A program made the position numbers and the translations under genes. Below the pieces are notes generated by a model. It searched no databases. It was not told the DNA's origin and saw only the letters and a program-made list of their open reading frames with translations. Shown piece after piece: positions 9,159-32,662 of a stretch of DNA of 59,697 nucleotides (the first letter of the stretch is position 1; each line of letters opens with the position of its first letter). Source of the stretch: a virus (taxonomy: Duplodnaviria; Caudoviricetes); IMG/VR virus record IMGVR_UViG_3300030233_000116, positions 1 through 59,697 of that record. One strand, 5' to 3'.

Positions 9159-9166
9159 TGATAGCA

Positions 9167-9216: not shown

Positions 9217-9223
9217 CGCCGGC

Positions 9224-11116: not shown

Positions 11117-11382
11117 TCCCGGCTCGCCAAAATCCCTTCCAATTCCTGAAGTTTGGTCGGCTTCCCACAATCAATGGCAAACTTCAGCGCTTCGCGCCGA
11201 CAGAGTAACCGCTGATATTCATCGAAAGTAGAAACCCCGCGCAAAATCTCCTCGGCGATCCTGGCTCGCTCTTTCTCCAGTATGTCGAGGTAGCGGCTAA
11301 ACGCCTCGCGCGATTCACCCTGCAGTTCGCGAAGTCCCTTTATGTCTGCGAGAATTTGATCGATGGGAGTGTTTGTCGACAT
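11113..11382 (-). CDS. Small helical protein downstream of portal
   Basis: MSTNTPIDQIL...; position typical of small head-assembly proteins. Confidence 0.55.
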   Translation of the reverse strand: MSTNTPIDQILADIKGLRELQGESREAFSRYLDILEKERARIAEEILRGVSTFDEYQRLLCRREALKFAIDCGKPTKLQELEGILASRD

Positions 11383-11557
11383 AAGCTTGGAGCGATTCGC
11401 GCGCCTGTTCCGCGAGTTCGAGACTGTCAAAAGTAAATCGGCGGATGGGTAGCGGCTCCCCGCGTTCCAACCGGAAGCCGGCAGGGTTGAAGGATTCATC
11501 CGGAATCCCCTCCTCGCCGACATAAAGCACCCACTGCGGGCGAACGATTATCTTCAT
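11315..11557 (-). CDS. Hypothetical protein
   Basis: Start overlaps the portal stop (11554-11557). Confidence 0.45.
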   Translation of the reverse strand: MKIIVRPQWVLYVGEEGIPDESFNPAGFRLERGEPLPIRRFTFDSLELAEQARESLQAYVDKHSHRSNSRRHKGTSRTAG

Positions 11558-13800: not shown

Positions 13801-13826
13801 GGTATGCGGATACGCTACGACAACTT

Positions 13827-16800: not shown

Positions 16801-19800
16801 ACCCCCATCACCTCCGGGCCAAGCGCGGAAAACCCGCGATCCGGGTTACCAACGGTCCGTTGGCCGGATGTTTCGCCCTTGGCCTTTTCGACCATGGCAT
16901 TGACTTCCGGCTCGGAGATGGCCGCCATGATGCGTTCAAGGGCTTTATCGCCTTCAGGCGTGAGGGTGCGGGCGTAGAGAATCGAATCGCTCTGCGGGTT
17001 GAAGCGCTGGCTCAGTGGAATGACGTTGCCTTTGTCGTCGTAGGTTACAGGGTCGGCGGATTTTACCGCATTGGGGTCTGTGATACCGATCTCATGGCCG
17101 ACCTGTTCGGTTCCATAGGCGAGGTTAAACTTAAATGTTTGGTAGTCATCTTGCAAAGAAGCAAAATCCTGACCCAACAACATTTTGAGTAACTGACCAT
17201 CCACGGACCCCGCGTATCGTTCGATAGTCTCTCTGGTAATGGGGAGCCCCATGATCGTGCGGTTAGTCAGCCAACGAATGTCTTCCTCGGTTAAATTGGT
17301 TTGATCAAATACCTTTCCGGGCCGAATCCACGCATCAATGACTTGTGGCGTAGAACCTCTTTCAATTCTGGTCTGCGTCACAGGATCATAGAGCGCCAGC
17401 GTATCGTTAAAATCCTTCGGTTTACCCCGATACCGTTGTAAAAACCGCTCCGCTCCTTCTCTTGTGTCAGCAAACCAAACAACTCCCTTTTCTGCGTCAT
17501 CGGAAAGGAGGTTGAGGTTGAAGCGCTTAAATCCGCCGTTCAAAGTGCCGTGGTAGCCTTTGATTGTGTAACCAGCCGCTCGCGCCGCCTCATCCACCAT
17601 CCGCTGTGCGGTCTCCATGTCGCCACGCTCGACCGCTGCGAGATACTCGGCGTCCTCATCTGTGATGGTGCGGGTGCCAATCCAGTGCTTTTCGATGTAA
17701 TCATCGACAGCATTGTCGATGCTCTTGGGCGTGTATTTCGCACGCATCTCGATCACCTTGTCAATTTCCCTGTTTTGCTGCCTGATGTTATCGATGCTCT
17801 CAAAGTCAGTGTTCGGCTCGTAAAGCTCCTGATCCTCTTTTGAGAGCGCGTTGTATTCATCCAGCTCCTCTTGCATCATCTCGATGTCAGATTCGTTTTC
17901 ACGCTGGATTTTTCGAAGCTCCTTCAAGGAGTAATTATCAGGATGCAGAAGCTCGATGACGTCGTCGCCGGATCCCGTGTCGCCTTCGGCAACAGCCAGA
18001 ATTTCATCCTGAATAGCTTTTGGGCTGGCCTCGATCTTGCGGGTAGCGAGCGGAGTTCGATCATGCTCGATTTCCAACCCCTCTTCAATAGCCGCATCTT
18101 TCAATGCCTTGAGTTGAGTGCGGTTGGGAGCGCCTTGGTAATAAACCGTTTTGCCGTCCTTATAATCTTTCGCAATGCGAACGTATCCCAACGCCCCAGG
18201 ATTGCCCAAAATCAACCCATAACCATCACTGAAAAAGTGATGATGCTCACCCGTATCGACAAACCTTCCATCTGGAGACTGCCAGCCGGCAACCAATTTC
18301 CCTATGCCAACAGTCGGCTTCATTGCCTCAAAGCGTTCCCGAAAAACCTCTTTATTCTTCGCGGCTGTTGCAGCGTCGAAAGCGCCGTATTGCGGGGAGA
18401 TCGACCGGCTCCCAATCGCAAGCGTATCGGCTTCAGAAAAACCGCCATCACGAAGGCCGCGCAAAAATTCACCCTTTAGCCTCTTGTCCTCGGCTTCCAT
18501 TCTTTCTTCCGGTCGTGTCATAACCTCCGCCGCAAGAGCCTGCAGGTTTTTGCGCGCTGACTTCAAATCACCATAGAAAGCCTCATACATCCGCATTACT
18601 TGGGCGCGAACCTCATTCCAGGCTTTCGTCTGGTCTGCATTGAGGTTGCTGTCGGGTTGATTTTCTTCGATCTCAGTAAGACTGAGCCCGCCAACCTCGG
18701 CGAATTCTTTACTATCAAGCGCTTTTTCGACTTGTTTCCAAATGGCGTGCCCTTGAGTGGATTTAGGCCAGTCGTCAGGATCTTGAATGTCAGAATCCAA
18801 AATGCGCTTTATTGAGCGATACCGGCTTTTCTGATCTTTGGAGAGATTGGCGTTTTCAATCAGCGCCGCCATTGCTCCAAACATGGATTTGCCCTCCATC
18901 GCCGCCTCTATCTCCATTTCAATAGAGCGGGCGCCAAGCGCACCGGAGATAGGTGCCACCTCATCCGCCAACGCCCGCAAATCCTCCAAAGCTGACCGCC
19001 GTTTCCCCTCCCATTCCCGTTCCGACGCCCGAATTTCCTCCAAGGCTGCTTCACGCACGCGCTCCCGTTCTTCCCCGCTGAGATCATCAATCGTCGTCTC
19101 GGGATTCGCCCATTCCGGCCAGGCGTCCGGCACGTCGTCGACGTATTGCCGCCAGTCGAGTTCGGGCAGCGGACGGGCATCCATCGATGCCTCATCGCCC
19201 AGTCGATCATTGATAGCAAAAGCGCGGCGCCGGCTGTCGCCCTGCAAATCCTCAATCTCGCCGATTCGCCGCCACAAAACATCTTCGGTTTCCTGCGAAA
19301 GTTCTGGGGAAATCGCTCGAGCACCCAATGCGGCCCGAGCATCAATTCCTTGGCCTTCCAGGCGGGATCGGAGCACGCCCAATGCATTGCTCAGGATCTT
19401 CGAAACGTACTGCGGGGAAACCTCCAGTTCGCGCGCGGTCTCCGCTGCGGTCTTACCGGAAAGCAGATTCTCCACCATGGCGCGCGGTCGGTCCGGAAGT
19501 TTCTGGACAGCAGCCCGGAGAATCCCGCGGATGTCCCCTTGAGCGGCCGTCTCGCGAACGTTCTCATCCTCGCCGATGACTTCCGCCAGGGTTTCGCCGT
19601 CATCAGTGATCGGTTCGTCCAGACTGGCGGACATCCGCGGACGTCGGGATTGCCTGCGGTATTCGGAATTGAGAGCGTTGGAGATGGTCCGATTTGCATA
19701 GGCCGCAAACGGGCCGGACTCGGGGTTGTAACCTTCCGCCGCTTTCACCAACGCCAGGCGAGCGCTTTGAAGAATGTCGTCATATTCACCGAGGTTGCGG

Positions 19801-22800
19801 TAACGGTTCGCCCACCAGCCAGCCAGCCTGAGGTTGTCAGTAACGAGGTTTTGCACCTCTGCCGTACGATCGGAAAGGTCGAGGGTGAGTTGGTCGGGAT
19901 CGATTGTGCGCGCCCCCATCGCTTGCTCTTCTGCCCCCGCTGTTTCCTCCGGCCCCTGAAGATCGCGTTCCAACTGTAAAAACTCTGCCTGCTTGGCCGC
20001 GTATTCCTCTTCCTTCGGCCATTGCTGTTCGGATGCTTGTTGCAGAGGTGTGATTTGCTCTTGCTGCTTCTCAATGCGCGCACGAATCGAATTCACCTTT
20101 GCCTCGCCAGCACGCGCAGAACGCACGACTGAGTTGAGCAACCCTTCAGCCGTTTTAGGGGACCCATTATCCCACATCTCACCCGATGGCGTCTTGATTT
20201 CAGCCTCAAAAGTCACTCGCAACTCCTCAAACGATGCCAAGGCGCCGCGAGCAACCAGGGTGACAGGCACCTCATTTATGCGAAAGCTGATCTCTGCGGT
20301 ATTGTCTGCATTTGCAATCTGGACCGCCTTTTTGCGAAGCTGGTCCATGATATTGCCAAGCGCCTCGACGGCTTCCTTTCGATCCGTGAATACACCGTTT
20401 TCGCCGAAATCGTAAGTAACCGAGTCGCCCTCGAACTGAGCCGACATCTTATCCGAAATGGCTTCATACTGTTTCGCCAGCGCCGTATCCGAGCGGATAG
20501 AGGATTCCAAGTACCATAACCTTTTGCGAGACTCCGCAACCTCATTCAAAAATCCGCGCCGTTCGCCATCCAGCTCGGCGATCTCGCCTTCCAGGTCTGC
20601 CAAGCGCAAAACCCTGGTATCGCCGGAAAGCTGGGCGACCTGCTGGCGCATATTCATCACCACCTCGGACGCCGCATCGTCAAACTCGCGGCCTGAGACG
20701 TTGCCCTTCAATACCTGATGCACGAACGCCTGTTTGGCGGCCATCATATCGTAGATGGCAACGTCCATCGTGCTCTCCACGCCATAACGGATGTTGCGAA
20801 CCGCGAAATCGCTATCGTAATCCGGATTCGCCGAACCATCCTTCAGCTTGGCGCGCGTGAAGATATTCCCCTGCCGGATGATTCGACCATCGCGTTGCTC
20901 AAGCATGGCTGGCGTCATTGAGCGCGGCGGATCAAGATGATGTGCCGCCACCAACCGCTCCTGCATGTTCACTCCGACCCCGAGCTTTTCCGTGGATCCA
21001 AGTATCACCCGGACTTCGCCGCTGTTCACCTTCTCAAACAATGCTTCCCGGCGTTTGTCAGTATTGTGCTCGTGGATGATGGCGATTTGGTTTTCCGGGA
21101 TTCCTCGCTTGATGAGCTTGTCCCGAATGTCGCGATATAGATTGAATCCGCCGCCTGAAAATTCGGCATCCTCATCTGGACCTTCTTTTTCCTGCTTGTC
21201 GGGGTCGGTCTCACCGTCGGCTTCTTCCTCAATCGAAAGCGAGCCGCCAACAAAGGCATCAAGCGTATTAGTGTTGATCGGCCGAAACCGATCCAAGAAC
21301 ACGACCTGCGCGCCCCTCCGATATTCGTTCTCCTGATGAATCTTCGCAATTTCCTCAACCGCGCGATTAACCTTCGACCCTGGTTCATCCAGAGCATCCT
21401 GCCGCACGAGCCGCGGATCTACAGACGCCGCCATCCCAACCTGCATCGTTACGATTGGGACCGCGCGGGCAGCCTCTTTCTCATCGCTGCTACCGCTCTT
21501 CATCACCCGCTCAAACTCCGCGCCAATCTCCATGATCCAATCATTAATGCGGGACACCGCGGGAGTCTGGGGAACGACCTGTAAATCCGGCAGGTTGCGA
21601 CCATCAGAATTTCGCATCTTGGGAACCTTCAGCCCAAGTTCTTCATTCCCCATCTTCACGTCGAATCCTGAGCGGATCATGGCGACCAACTCGGCGCCGT
21701 TGGTGAATCGATTAAAGCGACTCACACGCTTCCATGCGCCCGACCAAGTGCGCTCCAGCTTCGTGTTTAATCGTCCGAAGGTGTGAGCAAATTCATCGAA
21801 AGTGTTAATACCAAAATCTTCCAGCACCGATGGCGTGGCCAGTTTCAACATGATGTATGCTTCGGCCACACTATTGGTAATCGGGGTCCCGGTGGCCAGG
21901 ATCACATTGCGCCCATTGTTGCGGTCCTGAATGTATTTCGTCTTCATCTCCAGACCCATCGCGCGTTGGCTTTCGTCGTTCGGAATGCCCTTGATGCGCT
22001 GCATGTTGGTGATGATCGACGCCTTCTTGTAAGCGTGCGCCTCATCAATGAAAAGGGCGTCTACGCCGGTCGATTCAAAGTCGATCACGTCATCCCCTCG
22101 CTTTTCGAGACCGTCCATCATCCGGCGAAGCTTGCCTTCCATCCGCTTTTTCGCCTTTTGCAACTGCTTGGTGGTCGGCGAATCTTTCCCCTCACTCAAG
22201 CGCATGCGATTGATGGCCTCGCTCAATTCCGCAAGCTTATCGCTGAAAAAGCGCCGAATGGTTTCCTTCGATGGCAAAATCCGATCGAACTGCGGTTGCG
22301 TGACGATCACCATGTCGTAATCGCCCGTGGCAATCTGCGAGATAAACCGAGCGCGACTCTTGGCGTTGAACGTTTTTTCCGTGGCGACCAAAACCTTTGC
22401 TGCCGGGTAAGCCTGCATGACGGATGCCGCAAACTGGCCGATGGTCGCCTTTTGCACCACGATCATTGGCTTTCGCGCCAAGCCGAGCCGCTTCATTTCC
22501 ATCGCTGCGACGATTTGCGAGAATGTTTTGCCAGAACCAACCCCATGCGCCATGACCGCCTTACCCTCCTGCAAAATTCGGGCAATCGCGGATCGGCGAT
22601 GCCCATTCATCCAGACGACATTAGAAAGCCCTGGAATATTGTGGCGCGATTGATCGCCGTCCCTCACCAGATAGTCGCCACTGTAAACAGGGGCGACCAC
22701 GCTGTTCATGACGTCGTTATATTCCTGCTCGACCACTTCTTGCACGGACACCCCCTCGACCTGAACGGCAGTGGTCTTGATCCAACTTTCGAAACGCCGC

Positions 22801-25800
22801 TCCATGTCGGCCATCTTCGCTTTCGCGGCCTGCGTGGCAGGAAAATCCGTCTCTGTCTTCGTTTTGCCGCCGCCAAGACTGACAGTGGTCGTGATTTGTG
22901 GCGAAGTGCCCTTCAACGCATGGGTGAGAAGTTCCGCCCCGCTCAGTTTTCCGCTTTTCCAATCGACGGAATTTCCGCTGGCTAGCGGATTGCTCACAGT
23001 CACAACGTGCGTGTTGGCAGCCGCCACGTAGGAAACCTTAGTTTTGGAGCCGAGGAGATCGGTTGCAAACGCGGAAAGGACGCGCTCAGGAATCCAGCGT
23101 GACGCCAGGGAAAAGTAAATATCCTTTAATGGGACCGTCGGAGGAATCACCCCCTCCAACGCAGCAATATTCGCCCGGTATCGAGAATCTGTTTCCGCCG
23201 CCGCACGAGCGGCCCGAAGACGTTTGCGAACATTTGAACTGAGGTATCGCTCGGCGATTTCCAAACGTCCCGTTGCGGGATCGAGATAGGCGCGCCCGGT
23301 TTCGACAATGCGGTCTTCCGCTTCGCGTTTCGAAATTCCCAGCATATTGGCCACGGAATCAGCATCGACTGATCCCTCAAAGGCCATCAAGATGTTGATG
23401 GCATCGTTGATATTCTCCGCTTTCTCCGGCTTCGAGACCGGTTCCCGGACTCGTTTCGAGAAAATATCCGCCTTGCGCCACGCTTTTTTGACCTTCTTCG
23501 TTCGCTGGTCATAGCGGTCAAACTCTTCTTCGAGCGATTGAAGCAGCGGATATTCCGGATCGTCCTCGAGGAATGCCGCTTTTTCGAGGTGCCGATATTT
23601 CTTTGTAAGGGTGCCGTTGCGCGCGATGAAGCGGTCATAAGCCGCGTTGAGCCGTCGACGCATGGCGTCTAAATCGGCGATGGAAATATCCTGATCGACT
23701 TCACCCGCGATCAGCTCGCGGGCCGCGTCCCGAACCATCATCCAATCATCGGCAATCACCTCCCGATCGCGCCGTTCCTTGTCGGTGATTGGCTCGGTAT
23801 GTTTGTCGCCGTAGTTCTTTTGCGTCAGCCAACTCGCTGGCTCCAATCGACCTTCAACGACTTGAAAAAACTGGCCATCCTTTTGGACGTAACTTCCAGG
23901 CTTGTCGCCGGACGCCGCAACCTGGCTTCGCTGCACCGGCCGGGCGTCGCCTCGCTTAAAAATGTCTTTCGGGAATCGCTCGACGACCGCCGTCAACTCT
24001 GCCCCCGTGTCCTGCCCCGGCTTTGCCACCAAGGCATAATCGCCAGCGGAATACATGGTGCCTTCGAGGGAGTGGCGCCCAAGCGCCATCTCCGGGTTGG
24101 CCGCATAGTATTCGTTGACGAAAATGTCCGCCATCTGCCCTTCGACCTCGGCCTCCCCGACTTTATCCCGGCTGATCCACGAAGCGCCCTCAAACGGTTT
24201 TCCGTCTTTCTTGCGCATCACGATAATGTCCGTGGTGACTTCTGTGCCTGCATTGGCCGCAAATGCGTTGTTTGGCAGCCGGACGGCCCCCACGAGATCG
24301 GCTTTTTCCGCCAGCAACCGACGCACCTTAGCATCGCTCTTGTCCATCGTGCCGTCAGAGGTGATGAAGATCACCAACCCCCCAGGTCGCGTCATGTCCA
24401 GGCCGCGGGCAAAAAAGTAGTCGTGAATGAGCAAGTCGGGGTAATCCTTCGCACCTGGCACCCGGTAGTCACCAAAAGGCACATTTGAAACCACAAGATC
24501 CATGGAAGCCGGAGGGATCGCCGCCCGCTCAAACCCAGTGACTTGAACCTCGGCTTGCGGGTAGAGCTTCGCAAAGATGCGGCCCGAAAGGTTGTCCAGC
24601 TCAACACCAGTCAATGCGCTTTGCTCGGCGATAGACTCAGGCATGCGCCCGAAGAAATGACCGACACCACCGGCCGGTTCAAGCACATCACCCCCACGGA
24701 AGCCCAACCGCTCCGCAATCGACCAGACACCATCAATGACGCGCGGATCGGTGAAGTGCGCGTTGAGTGTGGACGCCGCTGCAGACTCGTATTCTTCCTC
24801 CGAAAGCAATTCGCGAAGCCGAGCGTTCTGCTTTGCGTAGGCAGGTTTTTTCTCGTTGAAATACTCTCCAGCCCACCCCCATCCGGTGTATCTGGCAAGA
24901 ATGTCCTTTTCCGCTGGCCCCGGATTACGATTCTCGGATTCCAAGCGCCGAAGCAATTCGATTGCCTCAATATTGGCGTCGAGCTTGGCCGCATTGCCTC
25001 GAGGTGCAATTTGCACCCCGGCAGGAATCCGGTGATTACGATCGGCTGGCTTTAACTCAGCCGATCGGTCGGGTCTTCCGGTTCCTTGAGGCGGCGCTGA
25101 ATCTCCTCGCTCGCCATCTTTCTCAACTCCTTCTCGCTGGCCGCCGGGAATTGTGTTCGGAAGAACTCTACCAGTTTTTGCATTGGCGTTTTGTCCTTCT
25201 TCATTTGATTTGATATTACTCTCTGCTGTTGCAAAAGTAAACAGATCCTCTTGGACTGCCGCGGGAGCCTTGCGCAACTCCTGCTTGATTTTGGCCCGAA
25301 CCTTTGGCTTCGAAGCCTTTACTGCGGGTGGAAGTGTCTCCACCCAGTCGAACATGTCGGGCGTATTCGGATCTAGCCGCCGGGCGCCAAGGCTCTGAAC
25401 TTGGCCCGTGCCTCGGCTTCGACTTCCGCCGCGCGGGGATTCTGGTTTCCGAACCGCAGTTTCCCGATCGCCCGCTCGACCGCCGCTTCCTCGGCCGGGT
25501 CGATTTTCGGGGGTTCCCAATAATTCCCTTGGCTTTTCTGGTTGTTTGGCTCGCTCATCTACCAGATTATACGTCGCGCGGTCTTTAACATCAACCGATT
25601 CCCCGTCCTTTTGCGCAACCAATTTGGGGCCTTCGGTATTGTCGTAGAGCGCGCCTGTATCAGCCAATGCCAACAGGTTTTTGGCTCCGGCATTAAAGCT
25701 GGAATGCGCGGTGAAAAGCGCCTCATACGGCACCCATCGCCCCTTGCCTTTTGCTCGCAAAACAGCTCGCGTGATGGATTCGGCGGGATCAATCGTGACC

Positions 25801-28800
25801 CCTAGGAACTCAACGGCAAACCCGGCATTCTGCCACTGCTTGATCTTGCTGGCGGACTTTTCAAAGTTCGCCATCGTGCCATCGAAGATGATGTTATATC
25901 GCTCCCGGCGATTCTTATCGACCAATTTCAGTTCGAGCTTTTTCGCAATCCAACTCGATTCTTCATGCACCACGGCGGCCGCCCGGCTGTCTCCGGCTTG
26001 CACGATACGGTCATACTCCGGAATCAACTCCTTGATCTCATCGGCATTGATCTCGACTGGCTGTTGCTTAAATGGAGTCTTGCCCGCTTTGATGCGCGCC
26101 TTGAGCGTAGTGGTTTTCCCAGCGCCACCCCCGCCACCCATGGCCAGAACAACAGGCTTTTGCCCTTCCGGCACCGGCTTCCCACGGCTGATGAAATATT
26201 GGATGACGGCCTCGCGGAATTCATTCCGACTCACTTTTCCCTCGGGAAGCAGACCGGCAGCAACCAAGGGATGCTCGGCATCAACTTCAGCCTCATTGAG
26301 ATCCAAGGTCTCCTGCAACAGGGGGGCGCCGTCCTGCAGCGTGCGCGGCGGAACAGGCAACCCATTTTCAAACTCCCATCCTTCAGACTCGGGAAACGCC
26401 TCGCGGATCCGTGGATCCACAGGACCGGCCAATCGCCGGGTGGCCAGCGTGTGAACAGCCCTCGTGAACAACGCACCAGCATATTGCGAATCTTCCACCA
26501 CCGACCGGAGCAACCCTTCCAGCGCCCTCACCCCATTAACAGACCCCAAAGCCCGTCCGATCCGCTCGACCATCTCAGGCACCTCGCCCTCGAACAAATC
26601 TTGCTGGCCGATGAACTCCTGGAAGGAACCCTTCCCGCCGTCCCGCTTCCATCGCACATATTGCGACACCGCAGGAGCAATCGCCGAATCGATGAAGTCA
26701 GGTTGCGTCTCTCGGATTTGCGCCAGCAGTCCGGATTGGCGAACGAGTCCCTTCGTGAAATTCACCAGCCCGGAATCCTGCGCGTCCTCGATCAGTTGCG
26801 TGAGCGTGATCCCGCGCCCGGCCTGGCGACCTTCCGCGGTATCAGCACCGAGCACATAGGCGAGCATCGCCCGCCGGACATCCTCGTAAAGGTCCGGTGT
26901 GGCCGATCCGTCCCGGGTAAGCCGGTTGCGCAGACCCATGGAGTCAATCACCTCCAGAATCGCTTCCCCGCTCGGACCGTCCTCGAGGAAATTGCCGTCC
27001 TCATCGAACTCGATGGCTGCCAGCACGCCGGGATTCTGCCGGAGCACCCCGGCCCGCTTGATGGCCTCTTCCGGCCGGCTCATCTCATCGGGATTCGCAT
27101 CCCGAACATAGGCCAGCAGTGGATCGGGCTCGGATGCGTAATCGCCGAAATCGACGATTTCAGCGCCCAAAGCCGGCATTTCCATCGCTTCAGCCTGTTG
27201 CGCGGCATCCTCCATGCCGAGGTGTCGGAGGTATCGAGCCACGAACGAGCGCTGCGCGCTCCGGGCCGCAGGCGTGCCGGCCGCACCGTAGATGACGCCC
27301 AACGCCGCCTCGCGACCGTGCCCGGACCGAATGACATCCTTCCCGCCCTCCGAAGTGACCACGATCGGGCCATGCTCGATGCTGGTGGCCGGTATTGATT
27401 TCTCAGGCTTCCACCGCTGGGCGAGATCGAGAATTTGCGCCCGGGATTGCACTCGGTCGCGTTCGCGGGGTTGGTATTTAGTCCCCTTGGAATTTTTGAC
27501 GGTCGCCAGGTCGATCGGCTTCAAGCGAAGCTTCACCTTCTTCGTCCTCGCACTGTTCTCGCTCCAATAGGTGCCGTCCTTTGCCACAGTCCCGAGCGGC
27601 TGGAACGCGGGGGCGGAATCTTCCGCGCCCCGCTGTTCGCTTACTTCCGTTTCCCGCCGCATCCCTTCTTTTTGTGACCTTTGCCTTTCATTGGACTCAC
27701 CTCCTTTCTGAGTGGTGGCAGGATCGGGATTCGAACCCGAGTCTTCAGGGTATGGGCCTGACGTGGTGACCTCTCCACCATCCTGCGTCAAAATTTCTTC
27801 CATCCGGGCGATCATCGCCTGGATCTCCGGCACATCCCCCGCAGCCCGGAGCGATGCAATCACGCTCTCGATCCATCGGTTGATCGCCTCGATGATCCGG
27901 CGGAACCCGGTCTCAGTGATCTCGCCGTCGGCACGCGCCTGCACCAACTGCCGCTTGAACTCGCCCAAAAGGTTCTCAAGCGGCATGCGAACATTGTTCA
28001 CCTGGAGATCGCCCCTGGCCGCCATGTCGAGAAGCGCAAGCGCTTTCTCCTGCATGGTCTCACCGGGAATCGCCTCGATCGCGGCATCAATGTCGGCCTG
28101 CAATCGGTCGCCAGCGAAGTAACTTGCCGCCGAATTGACCAATGCACGTGACACTTTCGCGCCATTGGCACCATTGATGGCCTGCCGGATGCCGCCCGAC
28201 TCTTTTGCACGCTTCCCGGCAACGAAATCCTCAAACGAGCCTTCCCGCCCGCCGCTTTCCCATTCCTCGCGAAAAGCAACCTGTTCGGCCGCATGAGCGA
28301 TCTCCTCGCTCACCACACCCTCGAACCACTGGTCTGCGGCATCCTCACCCAATGCCTGAGCCACAATCCCGCGTTGCCGATCGATTTGCCCCTCATCGAC
28401 ATGAATCCGGGGGCCGTCCTCTCCAAAGGCCACGCCCATGGCATTGCCTGCACCGCCAGGAACGGGCCCCTCGACGACCTGAACGCCCGCGCTCAGTCGA
28501 TTCCGAGAATTGATGTCGGCAACCGCTTCTGTAACGCGCGATAGTCGGCCAGCAGGCGTTCGAATGTCGGCTCCGGATCGCCCTCGGCGAAAGGTCGCGG
28601 TCCCATCGGTAGCCGATCCAGCAGCGACGGATCCCGAATCCGCTCGAGATCCTGGATCCGATTGCGAAGCTCCTGCACCGCTTGCCACCGATCCGGGTGC
28701 GCTCGCAGCTTCTCCGCGCTCATTTGACTGACTTCCATCAGCATCACCATACGCATCTTCCGCCATCCGGTAAACCCCGCGGACCATTCCGATATTCTGC

Positions 28801-31800
28801 CGGGTGACCTGCTGGCGTGCGGTCTCCTCGTCCTTTGCGCGGACCTGCACCGGCTCGCGTCCGTCGACATCGACCTCGAACAGCGCCAGATTTTCCGATC
28901 CTGGCGCTGGGGGAGGGGAATCAACTTCCGTTGATGCTTCTTCAACGAAAGTTGATGGGTCGGGCCGCAAAGGAATCCGAAGCGCCTTCTCGCGCGCTTC
29001 GCTCTCACTCATGCGAATGAGGCGACCGGAAGCTGGAGCGATCTCGCGCAACCGGTCGAGCTGGCCCTCGGTGAGAATCGTCATGCCCTCGACCACTTCC
29101 ATGCGCGGTGTGCCATCGGGTAATGGCGCCGATACCGCCGCGCGCTCCCGGGCATCCAGTCGCTCCAATGGAGTGCCGGCAAGAATCTTCAGTGCCCCCC
29201 TGGCCGCCAATCGATCGGCCTCGGCCTGCGCGGGGTCCATCTCAGGTGGTGGCGCCCATTTTGCCGCTTGGGCGTTGGCAGCCGCCACGAATTCGGGTGG
29301 CGCCGAGGATACCGGACGACCACCCTTTGCTTGAATCTGCTGGTCCAAAGCAACCGCCGCGCCATCCAAGCGAGCCAGTGTTGCATCCTCCATCCCGCGT
29401 TCCGCGGCCTGCTCCTGCATCCGGGAGATTTCCGATCGTTTCGCCATCAAGGCATCGACCGAATCGTCTGGAGCGATTCGCATGGACTCAATTCGACCGC
29501 GAAGGCTTTGATTCTGGTAGCCTTCGACGCCACCCTGCGCCCCTCCGACAACGCCCCCAGCCAAACCACCCAAGGCAGCGGATTGCGCCAACCGCTCCCA
29601 CGCCCCCTCGAACGCCGCCGCCTGATCTCGGAATCCGGCCTCCAGAAGCATGGAAGTTAATTCCTGACCCATTTCCGGCAACGCTTCGCTCCCGGCCCCC
29701 AAGGAAGCACGTCGCACGAACTGCGAAAGCACTCCGCGCCCACCAGGATTGCGCGTCAAAAATTGACCACCCGGAATTTTGTCCATCGCCCCGCCAATGA
29801 CCCCCATCAGCACGCCCTCGGATGTCGCCAAAGCCTTGGCCTCCAATTCCGACGCACCCGCTTCCCGGTGGTATTCCATGGCGTCATTGTATTGGTTGCC
29901 GGCCATCTTCGAGCCGGTCAACGCCATGAAGGTGACCGGAGCGGCCGGGCCGGTCAGTGACGCCAAGCCAAGGTCGATTCCCATCTCGATCATGACCGGA
30001 GCACCCTCAGCCAACAACCAACGAGTCAGGCGACCCGCATCCCAGGAATCGGCATCGGTAAGCTTGAAATTCTGCAATTCCGCGCTGGCTTGATTCCCGG
30101 CCTGCAGGTCGTTCGCCATCTGGCGCACCGCCTGATTCTGCGCCTCCGCTGATGTCCGCCCAAAAATGATGCGTTCGCCGAAATTTTGCGCCCATTGCCC
30201 GGGGTTCAAATTCGACGCCATCTCATTGGCGCCAGCCACACCGCTGGCAATCCGAGGCAGCATCCGGCCAAACACGGAGCGATCCACTTCCTCCCACAGT
30301 CCAATGTTCTCGTTTTTCTCCCGCCATTTCTGAAGCTTGCCATCCTTCCATGCCCGCTCCATCTCAAGGAATGTCTCGCGTTGCGCCTTCGGTAGCTGCC
30401 GCAGCACCTCCCGCCGCTCATCGCCTTTGAGTTCGTAATTCAGGAGTCGTGCCCGGTCCTGCAGCCCCGAGAACTCCTCATTCACCTCCGCCTGGCGTTG
30501 CTCGATCTCTTTCTGCAGCGCCGACTGAGCAGCCATGCGCGCCTCAAGATCCTCGATCGCCTCGATCTCCGCCATGCGCGCCTCAGCATCCGCATCAATC
30601 GCGTCCAGCTTCTCCGCAATCGGTCGGGTCGCCTCATTACCCCGCAACTCCTCCCGAGCCTGCTTCGCCCGCTCTTCGGCCAGGCGTCGACTTTCTTCCG
30701 CTACGGCATTTGCCTGAGCCTGCCCCTGGTCAAACGCCGCCGCGCGTTCCCGTAATGCCTCGACCTCAGCATTGTGGTTCGCCCGCTCCTCCGCGGTCAT
30801 CCCCTGTGTGGCCCGCTCGGCCAATCGCGCGGCCTCGGCCTCGATGGCTTCCACCTCGGCGACCGTCTGTTGCGCGTTCTCGACCTGGCGCTGACTCTGC
30901 TCCTCTGGAGATTCCTCCAATCGAGCCTGAGCCTGCTCCGCGATCCGCCGTCGCATATACCCGCCGGGCCCCTCCTTCTCCAGAGCAAGCAACTCCTGCT
31001 CGAGCCGGTAATCTTCTTCTTCCAACGCCCGTCGCGCTTCATCCCCTGCAAATCGCGCATCGATCTCTTCCAGCCGCGCCTTGCGGATCCTCTCATCCTC
31101 CTGCCATGCAGCCATGGCCGCCGCGTCTTCCTGCGGCTTCGAACCACCGAACAATCCGCGTTTCGGCTCAGGCTTAGGCTTCGGGGTCGCCCAATTTTCC
31201 CGCTCCATGGTCAGCTCTTCGCGTTCCTGGTCAGAAAGCACCTTCGGAGCGTCGGGTGCGCCTTTCGCCACCCTAATCTCCTTACGCCGCATCTCGCGAT
31301 CCCGCTTCTCGCGTGCATGCAGGAACTTCGCGCTCGCAATCCGACGCTGCGGATTGCCGGAGGTCAATGCGACTTCCGGATCAATGACTTCCCATTCCGA
31401 ATTCTTGTTCTGTTTATAAAGATTGCGGTCGTTCGGGTCGTTCGGGTTCGGCCCAATCTTCGCGTTGCGATCGGGATCCACCCGTTTCACATCACCGGTG
31501 GCCGTGCGATCCATCCGGAACGCCCCTTTTTCGTCCCATTTCAGTTCACCCTTGCGCTCTTCGTACAAAGGATTCCCCTCGACATCCCGCTCGATCAGGA
31601 TGTTCCCCAAAGCATCTTTCCGATACCGCACCCCTTGTTCCTGTAGCCCGGCCTCGTGTTGCGCCTTCTCAAGCTTCGCGCGCTCCGCTTCGTATCGCTG
31701 GGATTCCCGCTGAAATTGCTCCTGTTGCCGCTGGACGCCTTCGTTGATGTCCTGCTTGGCCTCCATGAAGCGTCCGGCATCCTGCTGGATGGCCTGCAGC

Positions 31801-32012
31801 CGATCTTTCCGGTTTCGAGCCGTCAGAAGCCCGGATTGCATCATGACAGCCCGATTTGCCTCGGACTGCTGCTGTTCCCGCACCTGATTCCAATCCGGTT
31901 CCGCCGGGCGTTCCGGCATCTCAATGTCGGCAACGAAATCCCGCGGCTCTTCAGGAGCAGGGGAAACCGGCACGCCTTGCGCCGGGCGCACCCCGTGTGC
32001 TTGGCGCTTCAT
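13827..32012 (-). CDS. Giant polyvalent DarB-like virion/ejection protein (6061 aa): coiled-coil/Gly-rich N-term, degenerate zincin, ParB-like, Zeta-toxin P-loop kinase, N6-adenine MTase, SNF2 helicase, sigma70, ART-like, LPD38-like C-term
   Basis: Motifs: YQPRER/SGHGR (~27300-27480); GGGGGAGKT/INADEIKE/HEESS/IFDGT (~25650-26150); LEPAGGVG/NVPFG (~24470-24690); AHGVGSGKT/DEAH/TGTP/QRDGRIIRQGN (~20860-22560); NLRL/DDILQ/LVKA and region-4 HTH (~19370-19850); YHGT (~17550). Confidence 0.9.
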   Translation of the reverse strand: MKRQAHGVRPAQGVPVSPAPEEPRDFVADIEMPERPAEPDWNQVREQQQSEANRAVMMQSGLLTARNRKDRLQAIQQDAGRFMEAKQDINEGVQRQQEQFQRESQRYEAERAKLEKAQHEAGLQEQGVRYRKDALGNILIERDVEGNPLYEERKGELKWDEKGAFRMDRTATGDVKRVDPDRNAKIGPNPNDPNDRNLYKQNKNSEWEVIDPEVALTSGNPQRRIASAKFLHAREKRDREMRRKEIRVAKGAPDAPKVLSDQEREELTMERENWATPKPKPEPKRGLFGGSKPQEDAAAMAAWQEDERIRKARLEEIDARFAGDEARRALEEEDYRLEQELLALEKEGPGGYMRRRIAEQAQARLEESPEEQSQRQVENAQQTVAEVEAIEAEAARLAERATQGMTAEERANHNAEVEALRERAAAFDQGQAQANAVAEESRRLAEERAKQAREELRGNEATRPIAEKLDAIDADAEARMAEIEAIEDLEARMAAQSALQKEIEQRQAEVNEEFSGLQDRARLLNYELKGDERREVLRQLPKAQRETFLEMERAWKDGKLQKWREKNENIGLWEEVDRSVFGRMLPRIASGVAGANEMASNLNPGQWAQNFGERIIFGRTSAEAQNQAVRQMANDLQAGNQASAELQNFKLTDADSWDAGRLTRWLLAEGAPVMIEMGIDLGLASLTGPAAPVTFMALTGSKMAGNQYNDAMEYHREAGASELEAKALATSEGVLMGVIGGAMDKIPGGQFLTRNPGGRGVLSQFVRRASLGAGSEALPEMGQELTSMLLEAGFRDQAAAFEGAWERLAQSAALGGLAGGVVGGAQGGVEGYQNQSLRGRIESMRIAPDDSVDALMAKRSEISRMQEQAAERGMEDATLARLDGAAVALDQQIQAKGGRPVSSAPPEFVAAANAQAAKWAPPPEMDPAQAEADRLAARGALKILAGTPLERLDARERAAVSAPLPDGTPRMEVVEGMTILTEGQLDRLREIAPASGRLIRMSESEAREKALRIPLRPDPSTFVEEASTEVDSPPPAPGSENLALFEVDVDGREPVQVRAKDEETARQQVTRQNIGMVRGVYRMAEDAYGDADGSQSNERGEAASAPGSVASGAGASQSDPGSRADSGSVAAGSATDGTATFRRGRSGADIRTPAGRLSRVTEAVADINSRNRLSAGVQVVEGPVPGGAGNAMGVAFGEDGPRIHVDEGQIDRQRGIVAQALGEDAADQWFEGVVSEEIAHAAEQVAFREEWESGGREGSFEDFVAGKRAKESGGIRQAINGANGAKVSRALVNSAASYFAGDRLQADIDAAIEAIPGETMQEKALALLDMAARGDLQVNNVRMPLENLLGEFKRQLVQARADGEITETGFRRIIEAINRWIESVIASLRAAGDVPEIQAMIARMEEILTQDGGEVTTSGPYPEDSGSNPDPATTQKGGESNERQRSQKEGMRRETEVSEQRGAEDSAPAFQPLGTVAKDGTYWSENSARTKKVKLRLKPIDLATVKNSKGTKYQPRERDRVQSRAQILDLAQRWKPEKSIPATSIEHGPIVVTSEGGKDVIRSGHGREAALGVIYGAAGTPAARSAQRSFVARYLRHLGMEDAAQQAEAMEMPALGAEIVDFGDYASEPDPLLAYVRDANPDEMSRPEEAIKRAGVLRQNPGVLAAIEFDEDGNFLEDGPSGEAILEVIDSMGLRNRLTRDGSATPDLYEDVRRAMLAYVLGADTAEGRQAGRGITLTQLIEDAQDSGLVNFTKGLVRQSGLLAQIRETQPDFIDSAIAPAVSQYVRWKRDGGKGSFQEFIGQQDLFEGEVPEMVERIGRALGSVNGVRALEGLLRSVVEDSQYAGALFTRAVHTLATRRLAGPVDPRIREAFPESEGWEFENGLPVPPRTLQDGAPLLQETLDLNEAEVDAEHPLVAAGLLPEGKVSRNEFREAVIQYFISRGKPVPEGQKPVVLAMGGGGGAGKTTTLKARIKAGKTPFKQQPVEINADEIKELIPEYDRIVQAGDSRAAAVVHEESSWIAKKLELKLVDKNRRERYNIIFDGTMANFEKSASKIKQWQNAGFAVEFLGVTIDPAESITRAVLRAKGKGRWVPYEALFTAHSSFNAGAKNLLALADTGALYDNTEGPKLVAQKDGESVDVKDRATYNLVDERAKQPEKPRELLGTPENRPGRGSGGRAGDRETAVRKPESPRGGSRSRGTGQVQSLGARRLDPNTPDMFDWVETLPPAVKASKPKVRAKIKQELRKAPAAVQEDLFTFATAESNIKSNEEGQNANAKTGRVLPNTIPGGQREGVEKDGERGDSAPPQGTGRPDRSAELKPADRNHRIPAGVQIAPRGNAAKLDANIEAIELLRRLESENRNPGPAEKDILARYTGWGWAGEYFNEKKPAYAKQNARLRELLSEEEYESAAASTLNAHFTDPRVIDGVWSIAERLGFRGGDVLEPAGGVGHFFGRMPESIAEQSALTGVELDNLSGRIFAKLYPQAEVQVTGFERAAIPPASMDLVVSNVPFGDYRVPGAKDYPDLLIHDYFFARGLDMTRPGGLVIFITSDGTMDKSDAKVRRLLAEKADLVGAVRLPNNAFAANAGTEVTTDIIVMRKKDGKPFEGASWISRDKVGEAEVEGQMADIFVNEYYAANPEMALGRHSLEGTMYSAGDYALVAKPGQDTGAELTAVVERFPKDIFKRGDARPVQRSQVAASGDKPGSYVQKDGQFFQVVEGRLEPASWLTQKNYGDKHTEPITDKERRDREVIADDWMMVRDAARELIAGEVDQDISIADLDAMRRRLNAAYDRFIARNGTLTKKYRHLEKAAFLEDDPEYPLLQSLEEEFDRYDQRTKKVKKAWRKADIFSKRVREPVSKPEKAENINDAINILMAFEGSVDADSVANMLGISKREAEDRIVETGRAYLDPATGRLEIAERYLSSNVRKRLRAARAAAETDSRYRANIAALEGVIPPTVPLKDIYFSLASRWIPERVLSAFATDLLGSKTKVSYVAAANTHVVTVSNPLASGNSVDWKSGKLSGAELLTHALKGTSPQITTTVSLGGGKTKTETDFPATQAAKAKMADMERRFESWIKTTAVQVEGVSVQEVVEQEYNDVMNSVVAPVYSGDYLVRDGDQSRHNIPGLSNVVWMNGHRRSAIARILQEGKAVMAHGVGSGKTFSQIVAAMEMKRLGLARKPMIVVQKATIGQFAASVMQAYPAAKVLVATEKTFNAKSRARFISQIATGDYDMVIVTQPQFDRILPSKETIRRFFSDKLAELSEAINRMRLSEGKDSPTTKQLQKAKKRMEGKLRRMMDGLEKRGDDVIDFESTGVDALFIDEAHAYKKASIITNMQRIKGIPNDESQRAMGLEMKTKYIQDRNNGRNVILATGTPITNSVAEAYIMLKLATPSVLEDFGINTFDEFAHTFGRLNTKLERTWSGAWKRVSRFNRFTNGAELVAMIRSGFDVKMGNEELGLKVPKMRNSDGRNLPDLQVVPQTPAVSRINDWIMEIGAEFERVMKSGSSDEKEAARAVPIVTMQVGMAASVDPRLVRQDALDEPGSKVNRAVEEIAKIHQENEYRRGAQVVFLDRFRPINTNTLDAFVGGSLSIEEEADGETDPDKQEKEGPDEDAEFSGGGFNLYRDIRDKLIKRGIPENQIAIIHEHNTDKRREALFEKVNSGEVRVILGSTEKLGVGVNMQERLVAAHHLDPPRSMTPAMLEQRDGRIIRQGNIFTRAKLKDGSANPDYDSDFAVRNIRYGVESTMDVAIYDMMAAKQAFVHQVLKGNVSGREFDDAASEVVMNMRQQVAQLSGDTRVLRLADLEGEIAELDGERRGFLNEVAESRKRLWYLESSIRSDTALAKQYEAISDKMSAQFEGDSVTYDFGENGVFTDRKEAVEALGNIMDQLRKKAVQIANADNTAEISFRINEVPVTLVARGALASFEELRVTFEAEIKTPSGEMWDNGSPKTAEGLLNSVVRSARAGEAKVNSIRARIEKQQEQITPLQQASEQQWPKEEEYAAKQAEFLQLERDLQGPEETAGAEEQAMGARTIDPDQLTLDLSDRTAEVQNLVTDNLRLAGWWANRYRNLGEYDDILQSARLALVKAAEGYNPESGPFAAYANRTISNALNSEYRRQSRRPRMSASLDEPITDDGETLAEVIGEDENVRETAAQGDIRGILRAAVQKLPDRPRAMVENLLSGKTAAETARELEVSPQYVSKILSNALGVLRSRLEGQGIDARAALGARAISPELSQETEDVLWRRIGEIEDLQGDSRRRAFAINDRLGDEASMDARPLPELDWRQYVDDVPDAWPEWANPETTIDDLSGEERERVREAALEEIRASEREWEGKRRSALEDLRALADEVAPISGALGARSIEMEIEAAMEGKSMFGAMAALIENANLSKDQKSRYRSIKRILDSDIQDPDDWPKSTQGHAIWKQVEKALDSKEFAEVGGLSLTEIEENQPDSNLNADQTKAWNEVRAQVMRMYEAFYGDLKSARKNLQALAAEVMTRPEERMEAEDKRLKGEFLRGLRDGGFSEADTLAIGSRSISPQYGAFDAATAAKNKEVFRERFEAMKPTVGIGKLVAGWQSPDGRFVDTGEHHHFFSDGYGLILGNPGALGYVRIAKDYKDGKTVYYQGAPNRTQLKALKDAAIEEGLEIEHDRTPLATRKIEASPKAIQDEILAVAEGDTGSGDDVIELLHPDNYSLKELRKIQRENESDIEMMQEELDEYNALSKEDQELYEPNTDFESIDNIRQQNREIDKVIEMRAKYTPKSIDNAVDDYIEKHWIGTRTITDEDAEYLAAVERGDMETAQRMVDEAARAAGYTIKGYHGTLNGGFKRFNLNLLSDDAEKGVVWFADTREGAERFLQRYRGKPKDFNDTLALYDPVTQTRIERGSTPQVIDAWIRPGKVFDQTNLTEEDIRWLTNRTIMGLPITRETIERYAGSVDGQLLKMLLGQDFASLQDDYQTFKFNLAYGTEQVGHEIGITDPNAVKSADPVTYDDKGNVIPLSQRFNPQSDSILYARTLTPEGDKALERIMAAISEPEVNAMVEKAKGETSGQRTVGNPDRGFSALGPEVMGVDEVYGSKLVREKEADWNEAGRRMAAENPGGVIEMALERGMAGGTLNPEETKAVQVVVAEEMSKPLTPERRRILTGLVWAYRQTGTEAGRQLASRKDPFMSPAERHREFLAKAIFTPPSKVRKQIEKADQAEKQRLLDAESARIKAIEKALNAMGITFDMIFGGEVELILKGSAIVKNILSGFTSQDSKIVRALQGGAKSFEVIGKEMGATAKEVEAVRDRYADAVNTRYRDTVRKLLERGVSPGEVAKYIDQTGVALGAAALGNREVSDADVDAAMAQVLEAMGIAPKTEQGKRKTVRRRVPKRRPLLQVPQTPVSDAPVGPTPGAYPEDQTRLELNEDQAARNRTRMPRSDAPAAPEAGPQQKLPLEYENREIMVRFPIDDAQQVVRVARTAQAASGNPFDMAIEYWINGILSGPQTHIVNIAGNFANTAWDMTVQRGMEAVMNLMVKDQKGAQFGEFKHLLAGLRPGLAKGWKMAVKAWDAESDFFESEVLGGQVELFEDFDKAGGVQPAIKGRTGRIVRIPGRLLLFMDSLFKFTIGRMETGAMAFRIGKQKGLEGKKLEEFIADEVNTPGSMSWQYAVDKAVDMTFQTPLKNADEGGNVMEQLARNAQDLRRKAKILSFIIPFVRTPYNIFATGIRKTPLGSIPMTYRLLQAGFFKFRDGKPVLTSHPQLVRDMAEQTIAWVGTLMLLGMAEGDEDDDNKLILISGSRPSNSALADMQARTSGGPYSIRIGGRNGVTVSYGRLEPFATILGTVVDAARMTKSGGGSQEKTSQFFSYMVGQTQDKTFTAGIGGLMETIQNFSDPDRADFAASRFRSSFLSGLVPNIIRQPLRNMDEFQRDYRTAQVYYDMLPIPQFAAPRIDQVTGEPVRKDGNAASRLLIPWTREMEGSEQVDVMLRNWNRENPSLAWAPPRPSNKISRNGEQIELDADEYQELVALSAKYAGIRLRSVLNSLNTRNPTEDDFERVKKAFEQGRALARREMLLRRR
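25052..25204 (-). CDS. Nested +1-frame small protein (50 aa, MKKDKTPMQKLVEFF...)
   Basis: TTTACT(25241-36)-17-TAATAT(25218-13), 8 nt before the ATG; amphipathic helical product. Confidence 0.6.
   Translation of the reverse strand: MKKDKTPMQKLVEFFRTQFPAASEKELRKMASEEIQRRLKEPEDPTDRLS
25373..25558 (-). CDS. Nested +1-frame small protein (61 aa) directly after the Zeta domain; candidate antitoxin
   Basis: TTGATG(25594-89)-17-TATAAT(25571-66), 7 nt before the ATG. Confidence 0.65.
   Translation of the reverse strand: MSEPNNQKSQGNYWEPPKIDPAEEAAVERAIGKLRFGNQNPRAAEVEAEARAKFRALAPGG
25566..25594 (-). promoter_or_regulatory. Internal sigma70 promoter inside the giant gene
   Basis: TTGATG-17-TATAAT. 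Confidence 0.7.
27641..27691 (-). CDS. Nested 16-aa basic peptide MKGKGHKKKGCGGKRK
   Basis: GAAAGGAGGTGA Shine-Dalgarno (27708-27697), 5 nt before the ATG; immediately 3' of the nested tRNA. Confidence 0.65.
   Translation of the reverse strand: MKGKGHKKKGCGGKRK
27713..27787 (-). tRNA. tRNA-Met(CAT), initiator-like, embedded on the sense strand of the giant CDS
   Basis: CGCAGGA TG GTGG AGAGGTCA CCAC G TCAGG CCCATAC CCTGA AGAC TCGGG TTCGAAT CCCGA TCCTGCC A CCA; D, anticodon and T stems fully paired, C1xC72 mismatch, encoded CCA. Confidence 0.85.
28493..28738 (-). CDS. Nested +1-frame protein (81 aa, MEVSQMSAEKLRAHPDRW...)
   Basis: TTTACC(28774-69)-17-TATGGT(28751-46), 7 nt before the ATG; product looks helical while the host frame there is low-complexity. 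Confidence 0.6.
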   Translation of the reverse strand: MEVSQMSAEKLRAHPDRWQAVQELRNRIQDLERIRDPSLLDRLPMGPRPFAEGDPEPTFERLLADYRALQKRLPTSILGID

Positions 32013-32662
32013 CCGGTGGGTTTGCGTCGGCGAGGCTTCTTGCCGGCAATCATCTCATCCGGGCGGGTGTCCTGGCCCATGGCAGACATCTTAATCGATT
32101 TTTCCGCAGGTCGACCGTTGATCAACGCGGGTTGCGGCGATCGGAAATTGGTCCCCGCCACCACGCCTTGGCCGGTGCCTCCCCCGTATTTCTCCGGGAT
32201 CGCCATCTGCCGAACCCGCGTGCCGTCATTGCCGGTTCGATCGATCATGCCGGGACCAGGGCCAGCATAAGCAGGAGGAGCAGATGCAGCTTTCGCCGCA
32301 TTCCCCTCAGCCACGATCGAGCGCCGCCTCGCCTCCCGAACCGCCTGATTGTCGGCGAACTGCTGCGCGCTTTGAGCCGCCCGCGTGCTCCGATCCCCAA
32401 ACCGCCGGTCAAACGCAGCGTCGCGTTCCGCCTCGTATTCCTCCCGCGTTTTCGGCCCCTTCGGACGAGTGCTTTGCTTCAGCGCCTCGGCGTAGGCTGT
32501 CTCGAGGTCCGGCCCCTGATAATCCCCACCCCTATTGATGGCCCGCTGCGAACTCGCTTCCGCCGCCTGAGTCACGCTCGCCGCGCGCTCACGCGCCTTG
32601 GCAAAATCATCGTCAAACTCCGAGAAGTCCAACGCCGGCAAAGGAAGTGGAGATCGAGGCAT
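32009..32662 (-). CDS. Putative ejection/internal virion protein (A/R/Q-rich)
   Basis: Coupled (ATGA) to the giant gene; helical low-complexity composition. Confidence 0.55.
   Translation of the reverse strand: MPRSPLPLPALDFSEFDDDFAKARERAASVTQAAEASSQRAINRGGDYQGPDLETAYAEALKQSTRPKGPKTREEYEAERDAAFDRRFGDRSTRAAQSAQQFADNQAVREARRRSIVAEGNAAKAASAPPAYAGPGPGMIDRTGNDGTRVRQMAIPEKYGGGTGQGVVAGTNFRSPQPALINGRPAEKSIKMSAMGQDTRPDEMIAGKKPRRRKPTG

Follow-up and report, generated by a model that had tools for sequence, protein, structure and literature searches.

Candidate small genes in the +1 frame and an in-frame tRNA in the linkers of a giant polyvalent phage gene

Four nested start sites in the giant gene

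The viral record IMGVR_UViG_3300030233_000116 was analysed over its full length of 59,697 bases, which we refer to as the window. On the minus strand it carries a giant open reading frame (ORF; 13827..32012) that encodes 6061 amino acids (aa) and has no stop in its own frame (frame 0) throughout. Here we describe small ORFs that start in the +1 frame of this giant ORF and appear to be genes of their own, together with a tRNA gene through which the giant frame continues. The record is a single metagenome-derived one with a completeness rating of 98%, and all results for the window rest on its sequence.

An earlier note on this DNA had placed four small ORFs in the +1 frame of the giant gene, and the frame arithmetic confirmed this. 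For the ATGs at 28738, 27691, 25558 and 25204, (32012-x) mod 3 equals 1 in each case. The ORFs beginning there are 81, 16, 61 and 50 codons long, respectively, and all four are nested in the sense that the whole ORF lies inside 13827..32012, on the same strand and in another frame. ORF1 (28493..28738, minus strand, stop included) encodes P0001 of 81 aa and overlaps residues 1092-1173 of the giant protein. ORF3 (25373..25558, minus strand, stop included) encodes P0002 of 61 aa over residues 2152-2213, and ORF4 (25052..25204, minus strand, stop included) encodes P0003 of 50 aa over residues 2270-2320. The start of ORF1 is ambiguous, with candidate ATGs at 28756, 28750, 28744, 28738 and 28723.

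Since this GC-rich DNA has many alternative-frame ORFs of 50-100 codons, the presence of one is uninformative, and the coding signal was tested instead. Codon usage was scored by frame along the 6061 codons of the giant gene, in windows of 40 codons. Frame 0 was beaten, always by the +1 frame, at residues 1081-1141, 2151-2171 and 2271-2301, with margins of 0.2-16.6 that peaked at 14.0 for ORF1, 16.6 for ORF3 and 6.3 for ORF4. At residues 2891-2911 the +1 frame also won, marginally (0.7-1.7). For a control, the frame-0 codons were permuted in 20,000 trials per ORF, which keeps the frame-0 content. The +1 score was 3.0-3.2 standard deviations above these codon shuffles (z 3.22 for ORF1 and 3.03 for ORF4), with P values of 0.0005 (ORF1), 0.0001 (ORF3) and 0.0004 (ORF4). 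Per codon, the +1 frame scored -3.82 to -3.88, compared with -4.07 to -4.13 for frame 0 at the same places and -3.96 for the average gene of the phage. The 16-codon ORF gave no significant coding signal (shuffle P 0.059). Separate +1 coding units in the linkers, as the earlier note had proposed, are backed by codon usage, shuffles and the promoter geometry described below for three of the ORFs, but not for this fourth one.

The host linkers had been described as low in complexity. In frame 0, the combined fraction of G, S, A, R and P is 0.66 over ORF1, 0.61 over ORF3 and 0.49 over ORF4, compared with 0.385 for the whole protein, and these values correspond to percentiles 99.5, 99.0 and 89.2 within the protein. 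The description fits ORF1 and ORF3, which lie in the top 1%, better than ORF4, and the fraction in the linker with the tRNA is only 0.43.

ORF3 is conserved next to a Zeta domain

A Zeta-toxin kinase domain occupies residues 1945-2112 of the giant protein (25677..26180, minus strand). It was assigned by PF06414 with an E-value of 1.7e-31 and 109.7 bits against a cut-off of 22.3, and the P-loop GGGGGAGKT is present. Eighty distant relatives of the giant gene were fetched by a profile of the methylase-helicase core, and P0002 matched one of them, the locus L016 at 11025-11135 (E 6.8e-6). The match lies in the +1 frame of a 6469-codon ORF, just after its Zeta domain, and both the ATG and the stop align.

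Between the window and L016, the identity was 43% in the +1 frame, 25% in frame 0 and 21% in the +2 frame, and the flanking Zeta domains were 44% identical. The nucleotide identity by +1 codon position was 0.59, 0.55 and 0.38, which shows that the differences pile up at third positions. The proportions of nonsynonymous (pN) and synonymous (pS) differences were 0.42 and 0.73 in the +1 frame and 0.50 and 0.50 in frame 0. When the frames were aligned separately and compared with composition-preserving residue shuffles, z was 8.8 for +1, 2.85 for frame 0 and 0.85 for +2, and none of 2000 shuffles reached the +1 alignment score. P0002 is as conserved as the adjoining Zeta domain, and for the overlapped linker the main constraint seems to be that its frame stays open. 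In the comparison of these two sequences, ORF3 shows purifying selection, and it is old enough to be common to the window and L016.

The alignment of P0002 with its L016 counterpart found no match among 5.8 billion proteins. P0002 itself matched no Pfam and no PHROG family at E<=1, and hence no known antitoxin family. L082 and L004, the other Zeta-bearing loci whose downstream sequence is long enough, each have a +1 ORF (72 and 62 aa, respectively) directly behind the Zeta domain, and both ORFs start with a Shine-Dalgarno (SD) motif and an ATG. At L082 (10839-11426), a member of a widespread small-protein family (see below) follows one codon past the stop of the 72-aa ORF, so that two nested +1 ORFs stand there consecutively.

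A complex of the Zeta segment with P0002 was modelled and scored 0.64, compared with 0.01 for the best of three controls. Among solved complexes, 58 of 80 attained the mark for this score, as did 2 of 110 mismatched pairs; these counts are rough since own alignments were used. The modelled interface involves the Walker-A region, the ADEIK motif and segment residues 182-187. The model suggests that P0002 is probably a partner of Zeta that acts like an antitoxin. It is not classed as an antitoxin, because it has no family match and its gene position differs. An immunity role, which the earlier note had considered for the nested genes in general, is indicated in silico for ORF3 only, by its predicted placement over the Zeta active site.

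A different nested family in the relatives

In 66 of the 80 related loci, a jackhmmer search detected a family of small proteins of about 70-130 aa. Relative to the longest ORF, its frame is always +1; in 65 loci it lies inside that ORF, and it stands just before the methylase module. An ATG was found near the profile start in 63 of the 66. Of 57 distinct upstream sequences, 38 had an SD-like 4-mer at -16 to -4, compared with 1641 of 9401 control +1 ATGs (17.5%). Frame 0 is open across the family, and only 343 of 7032 windows of 100 codons (4.9%) are open at that offset. The median pN/pS was 0.48 in the +1 frame and 1.13 in frame 0, and it was lower in +1 in 98 of 102 pairs, which are non-independent and were selected by +1 identity.

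From 60 of the +1 translations, AlphaFold predicted a four-helix domain with a predicted local distance difference test (pLDDT) score of 88.8 and a predicted template modelling (pTM) score of 0.73. Foldseek gave no match to this fold in the PDB at E<=0.001. In a wide VIA-align search the best Z was 7.2 (2apl_A, root-mean-square deviation 2.6 over 73 residues), which is below what is meaningful for helical proteins. Against Pfam, only sub-threshold matches to TnpV were obtained, in 3 of 6 members.

The family was also found in 21 records of isolate phages, representing the 12 phages PBC5, Atu_ph08, Mwe-JY07, VvAW1, POI1126, Itty13, Pavtok, PEp14, Stean, LASTA, SJM3 and SopranoGao. In these records the match lies under one annotated coding sequence (CDS) only, usually the giant gene, and is never annotated separately. 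In LASTA, for example, it lies in the +1 frame of a 4433-aa CDS. In the Pseudomonas phage Itty13 (L089, NC_070969.1, 5605-8823), the RefSeq CDSs over the match are annotated on the opposite strand as hypothetical, which suggests that the giant gene of this phage is mis-annotated.

A different arrangement was seen in the Sinorhizobium phage PBC5 (L055), where the family domain forms, in frame, the C-terminal end of an annotated CDS of 2180 aa. The giant gene of PBC5 is split into two overlapping ORFs, 2904-9494 and 8921-18700, and this split could be a real variant, could stem from a frameshift error when the phage was sequenced long ago, or could hint at expression by frameshifting. The family also matches positions of about 2081-2173 in the 2185-position profile phrog_938, in the same in-frame form as in PBC5. 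These two cases would fit an explanation in which the +1 segments are C-terminal extensions, reached by programmed +1 frameshifting and giving truncated isoforms of the giant protein. The +1 frame is moreover open for 90 codons 5' of the ATG at 28738. However, a +1-frame TAG stands immediately 5' of the ATG at 25558, and P0002 must therefore begin at its own ATG. The relatives keep their ATG and the SD-like motif, and a slippery site was not identified. We regard frameshifted isoforms as highly improbable.

The earlier note had asked for conserved +1 ORFs in homologous giant genes. These exist for ORF3 in L016 and, as a different +1 family, in most relatives, but P0001 and P0003 had no homologue in any search, including that of 85 related loci. 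ORF4 occupies the position immediately ahead of the methylase module at which the different nested +1 gene occurs in 66 of 80 relatives, and with 50 aa it has half the size of that gene.

The frame scan was extended to the giant ORFs of 79 relatives. The +1 frame won in 98 segments and the +2 frame in 5, with at least one +1 segment in 69 of the 79 ORFs. Because of this one-sidedness, G/S/R-rich linkers may favour the +1 frame by their composition, and the frame scan alone is no proof. If G/S/A/R-rich codons simply happen to read well in +1, the nested ORFs would be a compositional artefact and no genes. The frequency of alternative ORFs of this size and the orphan status of P0001 and P0003 would agree with this, and the +1 frame stayed open in 13-29% of the codon shuffles. 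Against it, the composition-keeping shuffles reached the +1 score in at most 0.05% of the trials, ORF3 is conserved in the +1 frame beyond its composition, the +1 family of the relatives folds with high predicted confidence, and 3 of 11 rare promoter-ATG geometries in the window fall exactly on the starts described here. Composition as the whole explanation has, in our view, very little chance of being correct.

Promoter-like motifs in front of ORF1, ORF3 and ORF4

Promoters had been proposed 7-8 nucleotides (nt) before three of the ATGs, and this geometry was confirmed, though two of the motifs have only 8 of 12 matches. TTTACC-17-TATGGT (28746..28774, minus strand, 8/12 matches) ends 7 nt before the ATG at 28738. 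TTGATG-17-TATAAT (25566..25594, minus strand, 10/12) ends 7 nt before the ATG at 25558, and TTTACT-17-TAATAT (25213..25241, minus strand, 8/12) ends 8 nt before the ATG at 25204. We defined the promoter-ATG geometry as both hexamers with at least 4 of 6 matches, a spacer of 16-18 and an end 6-8 nt before an ATG. It occurs at 11 of the 2108 ATGs of the window, and three of the 11 are the starts of ORF1, ORF3 and ORF4.

Another of the 11, TTGTCA-16-TATCAT (10/12; 9181-9224, plus strand), stands 7 nt before the ATG at 9224 of a 226-aa ORF; outside the giant gene, no promoter of the leaderless type in the window is better. Because the geometry also heads this ORF, it suggests that the phage uses leaderless starts. 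An obvious SD is absent before many of the phage's genes.

ORF1 and ORF4 are supported by intrinsic signals only, namely codon usage, shuffles and promoter geometry. None of P0001-P0003 came near a cut-off in Pfam or PHROGs, and against P0005, the giant protein of a relative, their best E-values were 0.46, 1.0 and 1.2, respectively. P0003 had no match among 5.8 billion proteins. In the ESM Atlas the best score for P0001 was 0.76, and no usable match was obtained for P0003. P0001 gave three matches among 1.84 billion representatives (E 4e-4 to 1e-3), which were judged spurious, because they are translations of repeat arrays in which 'MGPRPF..G.' alone was matched and inflated by 5-6 stretches. 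The P0001 peptide concerned, MGPRPFAEGD (28590-28625, minus strand), resembles the repeated MGPRPFSRGN of the three repeat-array 'proteins', which are possibly CRISPR (clustered regularly interspaced short palindromic repeats) sequences, and the resemblance was judged to be a chance match.

A tRNA gene read through in frame

The earlier note had described a full tRNA followed by a strong SD before the fourth ATG, and both were found. ARAGORN placed a tRNA-Met(CAU) at 27713-27787 on the minus strand, and Rfam RF00005 matched it with 57.3 bits against a gathering threshold of 29 (E 8.9e-10). It is the sole Rfam match and the sole tRNA of the window. The gene lies wholly within the giant ORF and is read through in frame at residues of about 1409-1433. 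The SD AAAGGAGGTGA (27697-27707, minus strand) ends 5 nt before the ATG at 27691, where the 16-codon mini-ORF MKGKGHKKKGCGGKRK (27641..27691, minus strand, stop included) begins. The tRNA, the SD and the mini-ORF make up most of a 61-aa linker.

In tRNAs U33 is near-universal; positions 1 and 72 are paired in elongators, whereas bacterial initiators have C1xA72 and three G-C pairs in the anticodon stem. The tRNA of the window has a full cloverleaf and an encoded CCA, but also a C1.C72 mismatch, C33 and, at the base of its anticodon stem, two G-C pairs. It fits neither class. A tRNA inside a long ORF was found in none of 85 related loci. The only other tRNA adjoining a giant gene among the loci is a tRNA-Tyr (L014, 17660-17744), located 55 nt past the end of the giant ORF. 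By a reading of its sequence, the relative P0005 has an in-frame helix-turn-helix-like segment in the same linker and no tRNA.

An island or attachment-site origin of the tRNA was considered and rejected. No second copy of its 3' end was found in the window at up to 3 mismatches, no direct repeats flanking it were found, and neither 185,579 species genomes nor IMG/VR contained an exact match to its 22-nt 3' part. The tRNA looks like an insertion that was kept since the frame is preserved.

The mini-ORF overlaps an in-frame ATG at 27662 (M1451), with which the 4611-aa protein of the source's gene caller (P0004) starts. This protein, which the source collection lists for the contig, and the strong SD and short ORF just past the tRNA could mean that the giant ORF is functionally split at the tRNA into two genes, the second one starting at ATG 27662, and that the open frame is incidental. 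Frame 0 is, however, free of stops from 32012 to 13827, and the relatives P0005-P0008 hold the flanking domains in one protein that has no tRNA. Two separate genes are, to our mind, quite unlikely. The mini-ORF also contains CAC AAA AAG (27655-27675, minus strand), and a -1 slip on AAA AAG would enter the giant frame just before M1451. That such a slip brings SD-started ribosomes into the giant frame is pure speculation. A cut of the message by tRNA excision or RNase P, with an SD restart of the 4611-aa part, is speculative as well.

The earlier note had also offered, as an alternative, that whole units were captured and are read through in frame. This suits the tRNA-SD-mini-ORF cassette, which fills most of its linker and is confined to this phage among the related loci, but not ORF3, which is common to L016. 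ORF1, ORF4 and the cassette could have been captured recently and now serve as linker only, with ORF3 alone being functional. The lack of relatives of P0001 and P0003 even among the 85 loci, the oddities of a tRNA that is unique to this phage and the small size of ORF4 would agree with such relics. But all three ORFs have intact frames from ATG to stop, gene-like codon usage and the promoter geometry, and the tRNA scores 57 bits with its cloverleaf and CCA complete. We therefore consider relics unlikely, though somewhat less so than a split gene.

The giant gene and its setting

The giant ORF lies directly between the gene for the terminase large subunit (33786-35627), its upstream neighbour, and the portal gene (11554-13830), its downstream neighbour, and is therefore part of the head module of a phage of about 60 kb. 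Its stop overlaps the earliest possible portal start (TTG 13830) at 13827-13830, which is compatible with translational coupling. The earlier note had suggested that the nested genes can be on in the lysogen. This found no support: an integrase or a repressor was not among the 20 ORFs scanned, in a scan that was not exhaustive, and the giant gene is in the head module.

Besides the Zeta domain, Pfam assigned ddrB-ParB at residues 1489-1613 and SNF2 and Helicase_C domains, and an N6-methylase-like domain was also assigned. Many unrelated conflict domains are thus combined with a methylase-helicase core in one polypeptide, and related genes of isolate phages are annotated as 'DarB-like antirestriction'. 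In the terms of Iyer et al. 2017 (PMC5512222), the giant protein is a polyvalent virion protein, and it is DarB-like. A passage in PMC9144972 describes the detection of the DarB-like protein in virions of phage JC1. The protein also contains a sigma-70 region 2 (E 3.8e-9; region of about 19300-19900, residues of about 4056-4210) and a region 4 that stays below the threshold (E 0.0056, 16.7 bits; cut-off 25.7). A sigma factor packaged in the virion could redirect the host RNA polymerase upon entry.

A close relative of the giant gene was not found in any collection searched (viral, metagenome and genome contigs, and isolate phages). Two related loci of 30% identity were obtained from viral contigs, three of 27-39% identity from metagenome contigs and none from genome contigs. 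Searches of isolate phages with tblastn gave 8 records covering 10-13% of the query. Relatives of similar size encode giant proteins of 5137-6261 aa.

Interpretation

Taken together, our results favour a polyvalent gene with dual-coding linkers, in which ORF3 encodes an antitoxin-like protein, one linker is a tRNA insert, and nesting is general in the group. We give this reading a probability of roughly 60%. The evidence is good for one nested gene, ORF3; the family-wide pattern backs the principle, and the in-frame tRNA is unexplained.

In the mechanism that we propose, three linkers would be dual-coding: frame 0 stays open and yields a spacer rich in G, S, A, R and P, and the +1 frame yields proteins of 81, 61 and 50 aa. 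The sigma-70-like hexamers would set the start of transcription at or next to the ATG, giving leaderless messages that are independent of the late message of the giant gene. P0002 would bind over the Zeta active site and keep the toxin domain harmless in the producing cell, in the manner of epsilon or PezA. The insertion of tRNA, SD and mini-ORF would be tolerated as neither its length nor its frame closes the giant ORF. A small partner gene nested in the +1 frame of a linker would be a general habit of this phage group.

Several findings weigh against this reading. P0002 has just one homologue, in L016, and the post-Zeta ORFs of L082 and L004, considered as further members of its family, have no significant similarity to the profile of the window and L016; they are positional analogues only. 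Compared with the profile of the widespread family, P0001-P0003 scored 1.2, 0.6 and -0.3 bits (E 0.09-0.28 in a search of three sequences), and none is a member. Three runs of the complex model gave 0.64, 0.64 and 0.00 and agreed in at least 1% of the contacts. The pLDDT of P0002 in the complex is at least 41, its fold is uncertain, and the model may have been guided by a memory of solved epsilon-zeta complexes. P0001 folded alone gave an uninformative pLDDT of 59.6. A generic sigma-70 scan (at least 9 of 12 hexamer matches, spacer 16-18) was passed by TTGATG-17-TATAAT only, and over 13800-32300 it gave 1 site where 6.1 were expected, so that there is no overall enrichment. The leaderless geometry is not conserved either, since it is absent from the L016 homologue and present at 1 of 63 starts of the family.

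A wider version of this reading sees the giant polyvalent genes as disguised operons. Domain cassettes would be inherited, shuffled and expressed jointly with their +1 partner genes in the adjoining linker, which would encode an immunity factor, a chaperone or a regulator, the partner possibly earlier or alone; the tRNA would be a working one whose excision cuts the message, and the SD would restart the 4611-aa part. We put this forward tentatively and as rather doubtful.

Embedded genes of phages are already known; for a conserved second layer in the linkers of giant polyvalent genes, no description was found in searches of open-access papers and preprints. This layer is invisible to standard annotation. 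If the reading is true, it shows how a toxin domain in a packaged protein stays harmless in the producing cell, it offers a way in which domains and partners stay linked while cassettes are shuffled, and it adds a class of small phage proteins for which all giant genes should be searched. With the in-frame tRNA, one stretch of DNA would be a structural RNA gene and at the same time code for protein, which is rare.

Comparison with known systems

The tRNA shares the canonical cloverleaf, the encoded CCA and a score well above the Rfam threshold with other phage tRNA genes. It differs from them by its location within a protein-coding frame, where it is read through, and by C33 and the C.C at 1:72.

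In epsilon/zeta systems, the two genes form an operon in which the antitoxin gene comes first. The gene of P0002 follows the toxin domain and lies within the toxin's own ORF, in another frame, and there is no sequence kinship. The toxin here is moreover one domain of a polyvalent protein. Common to epsilon-zeta, PezA-PezT and the window is a Zeta-type kinase with Walker A (PF06414). The complex model places P0002 over the active site in two of three runs, and occlusion of the toxin's active site is what a passage in PMC10532202 describes for Epsilon and PezA.

The giant protein shares its make-up of ParB, Zeta kinase, methylase and SNF2 domains with the polyvalent proteins that Iyer et al. 2017 (PMC5512222) treat for phages and conjugative elements, and with the P1 DarB-like antirestriction proteins. 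The second coding layer and the in-frame tRNA are additional to what has been described. By term searches, the main text of PMC5512222 does not contain the words 'overlapping', 'frameshift' and 'linker', nor does it name a partner for the zeta-like kinase. Literature searches among open-access papers and preprints, and term searches inside PMC5512222 and PMC9144972, gave no description of nested genes in polyvalent or DarB-like genes.

A parallel in gene arrangement is Rz1 inside Rz of phage lambda, where, as here, a whole small gene lies within a larger one on the same strand, in another frame and with its own start signals. Other embedded out-of-frame genes are B in A and E in D of phiX174. 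Compared with these, the host gene described here encodes a 6061-aa multidomain virion protein, and it carries several nested genes, which lie in disordered linkers. Frame 0 seems to be constrained there only to stay open, and one nested gene is apparently tied in function to the neighbouring domain.

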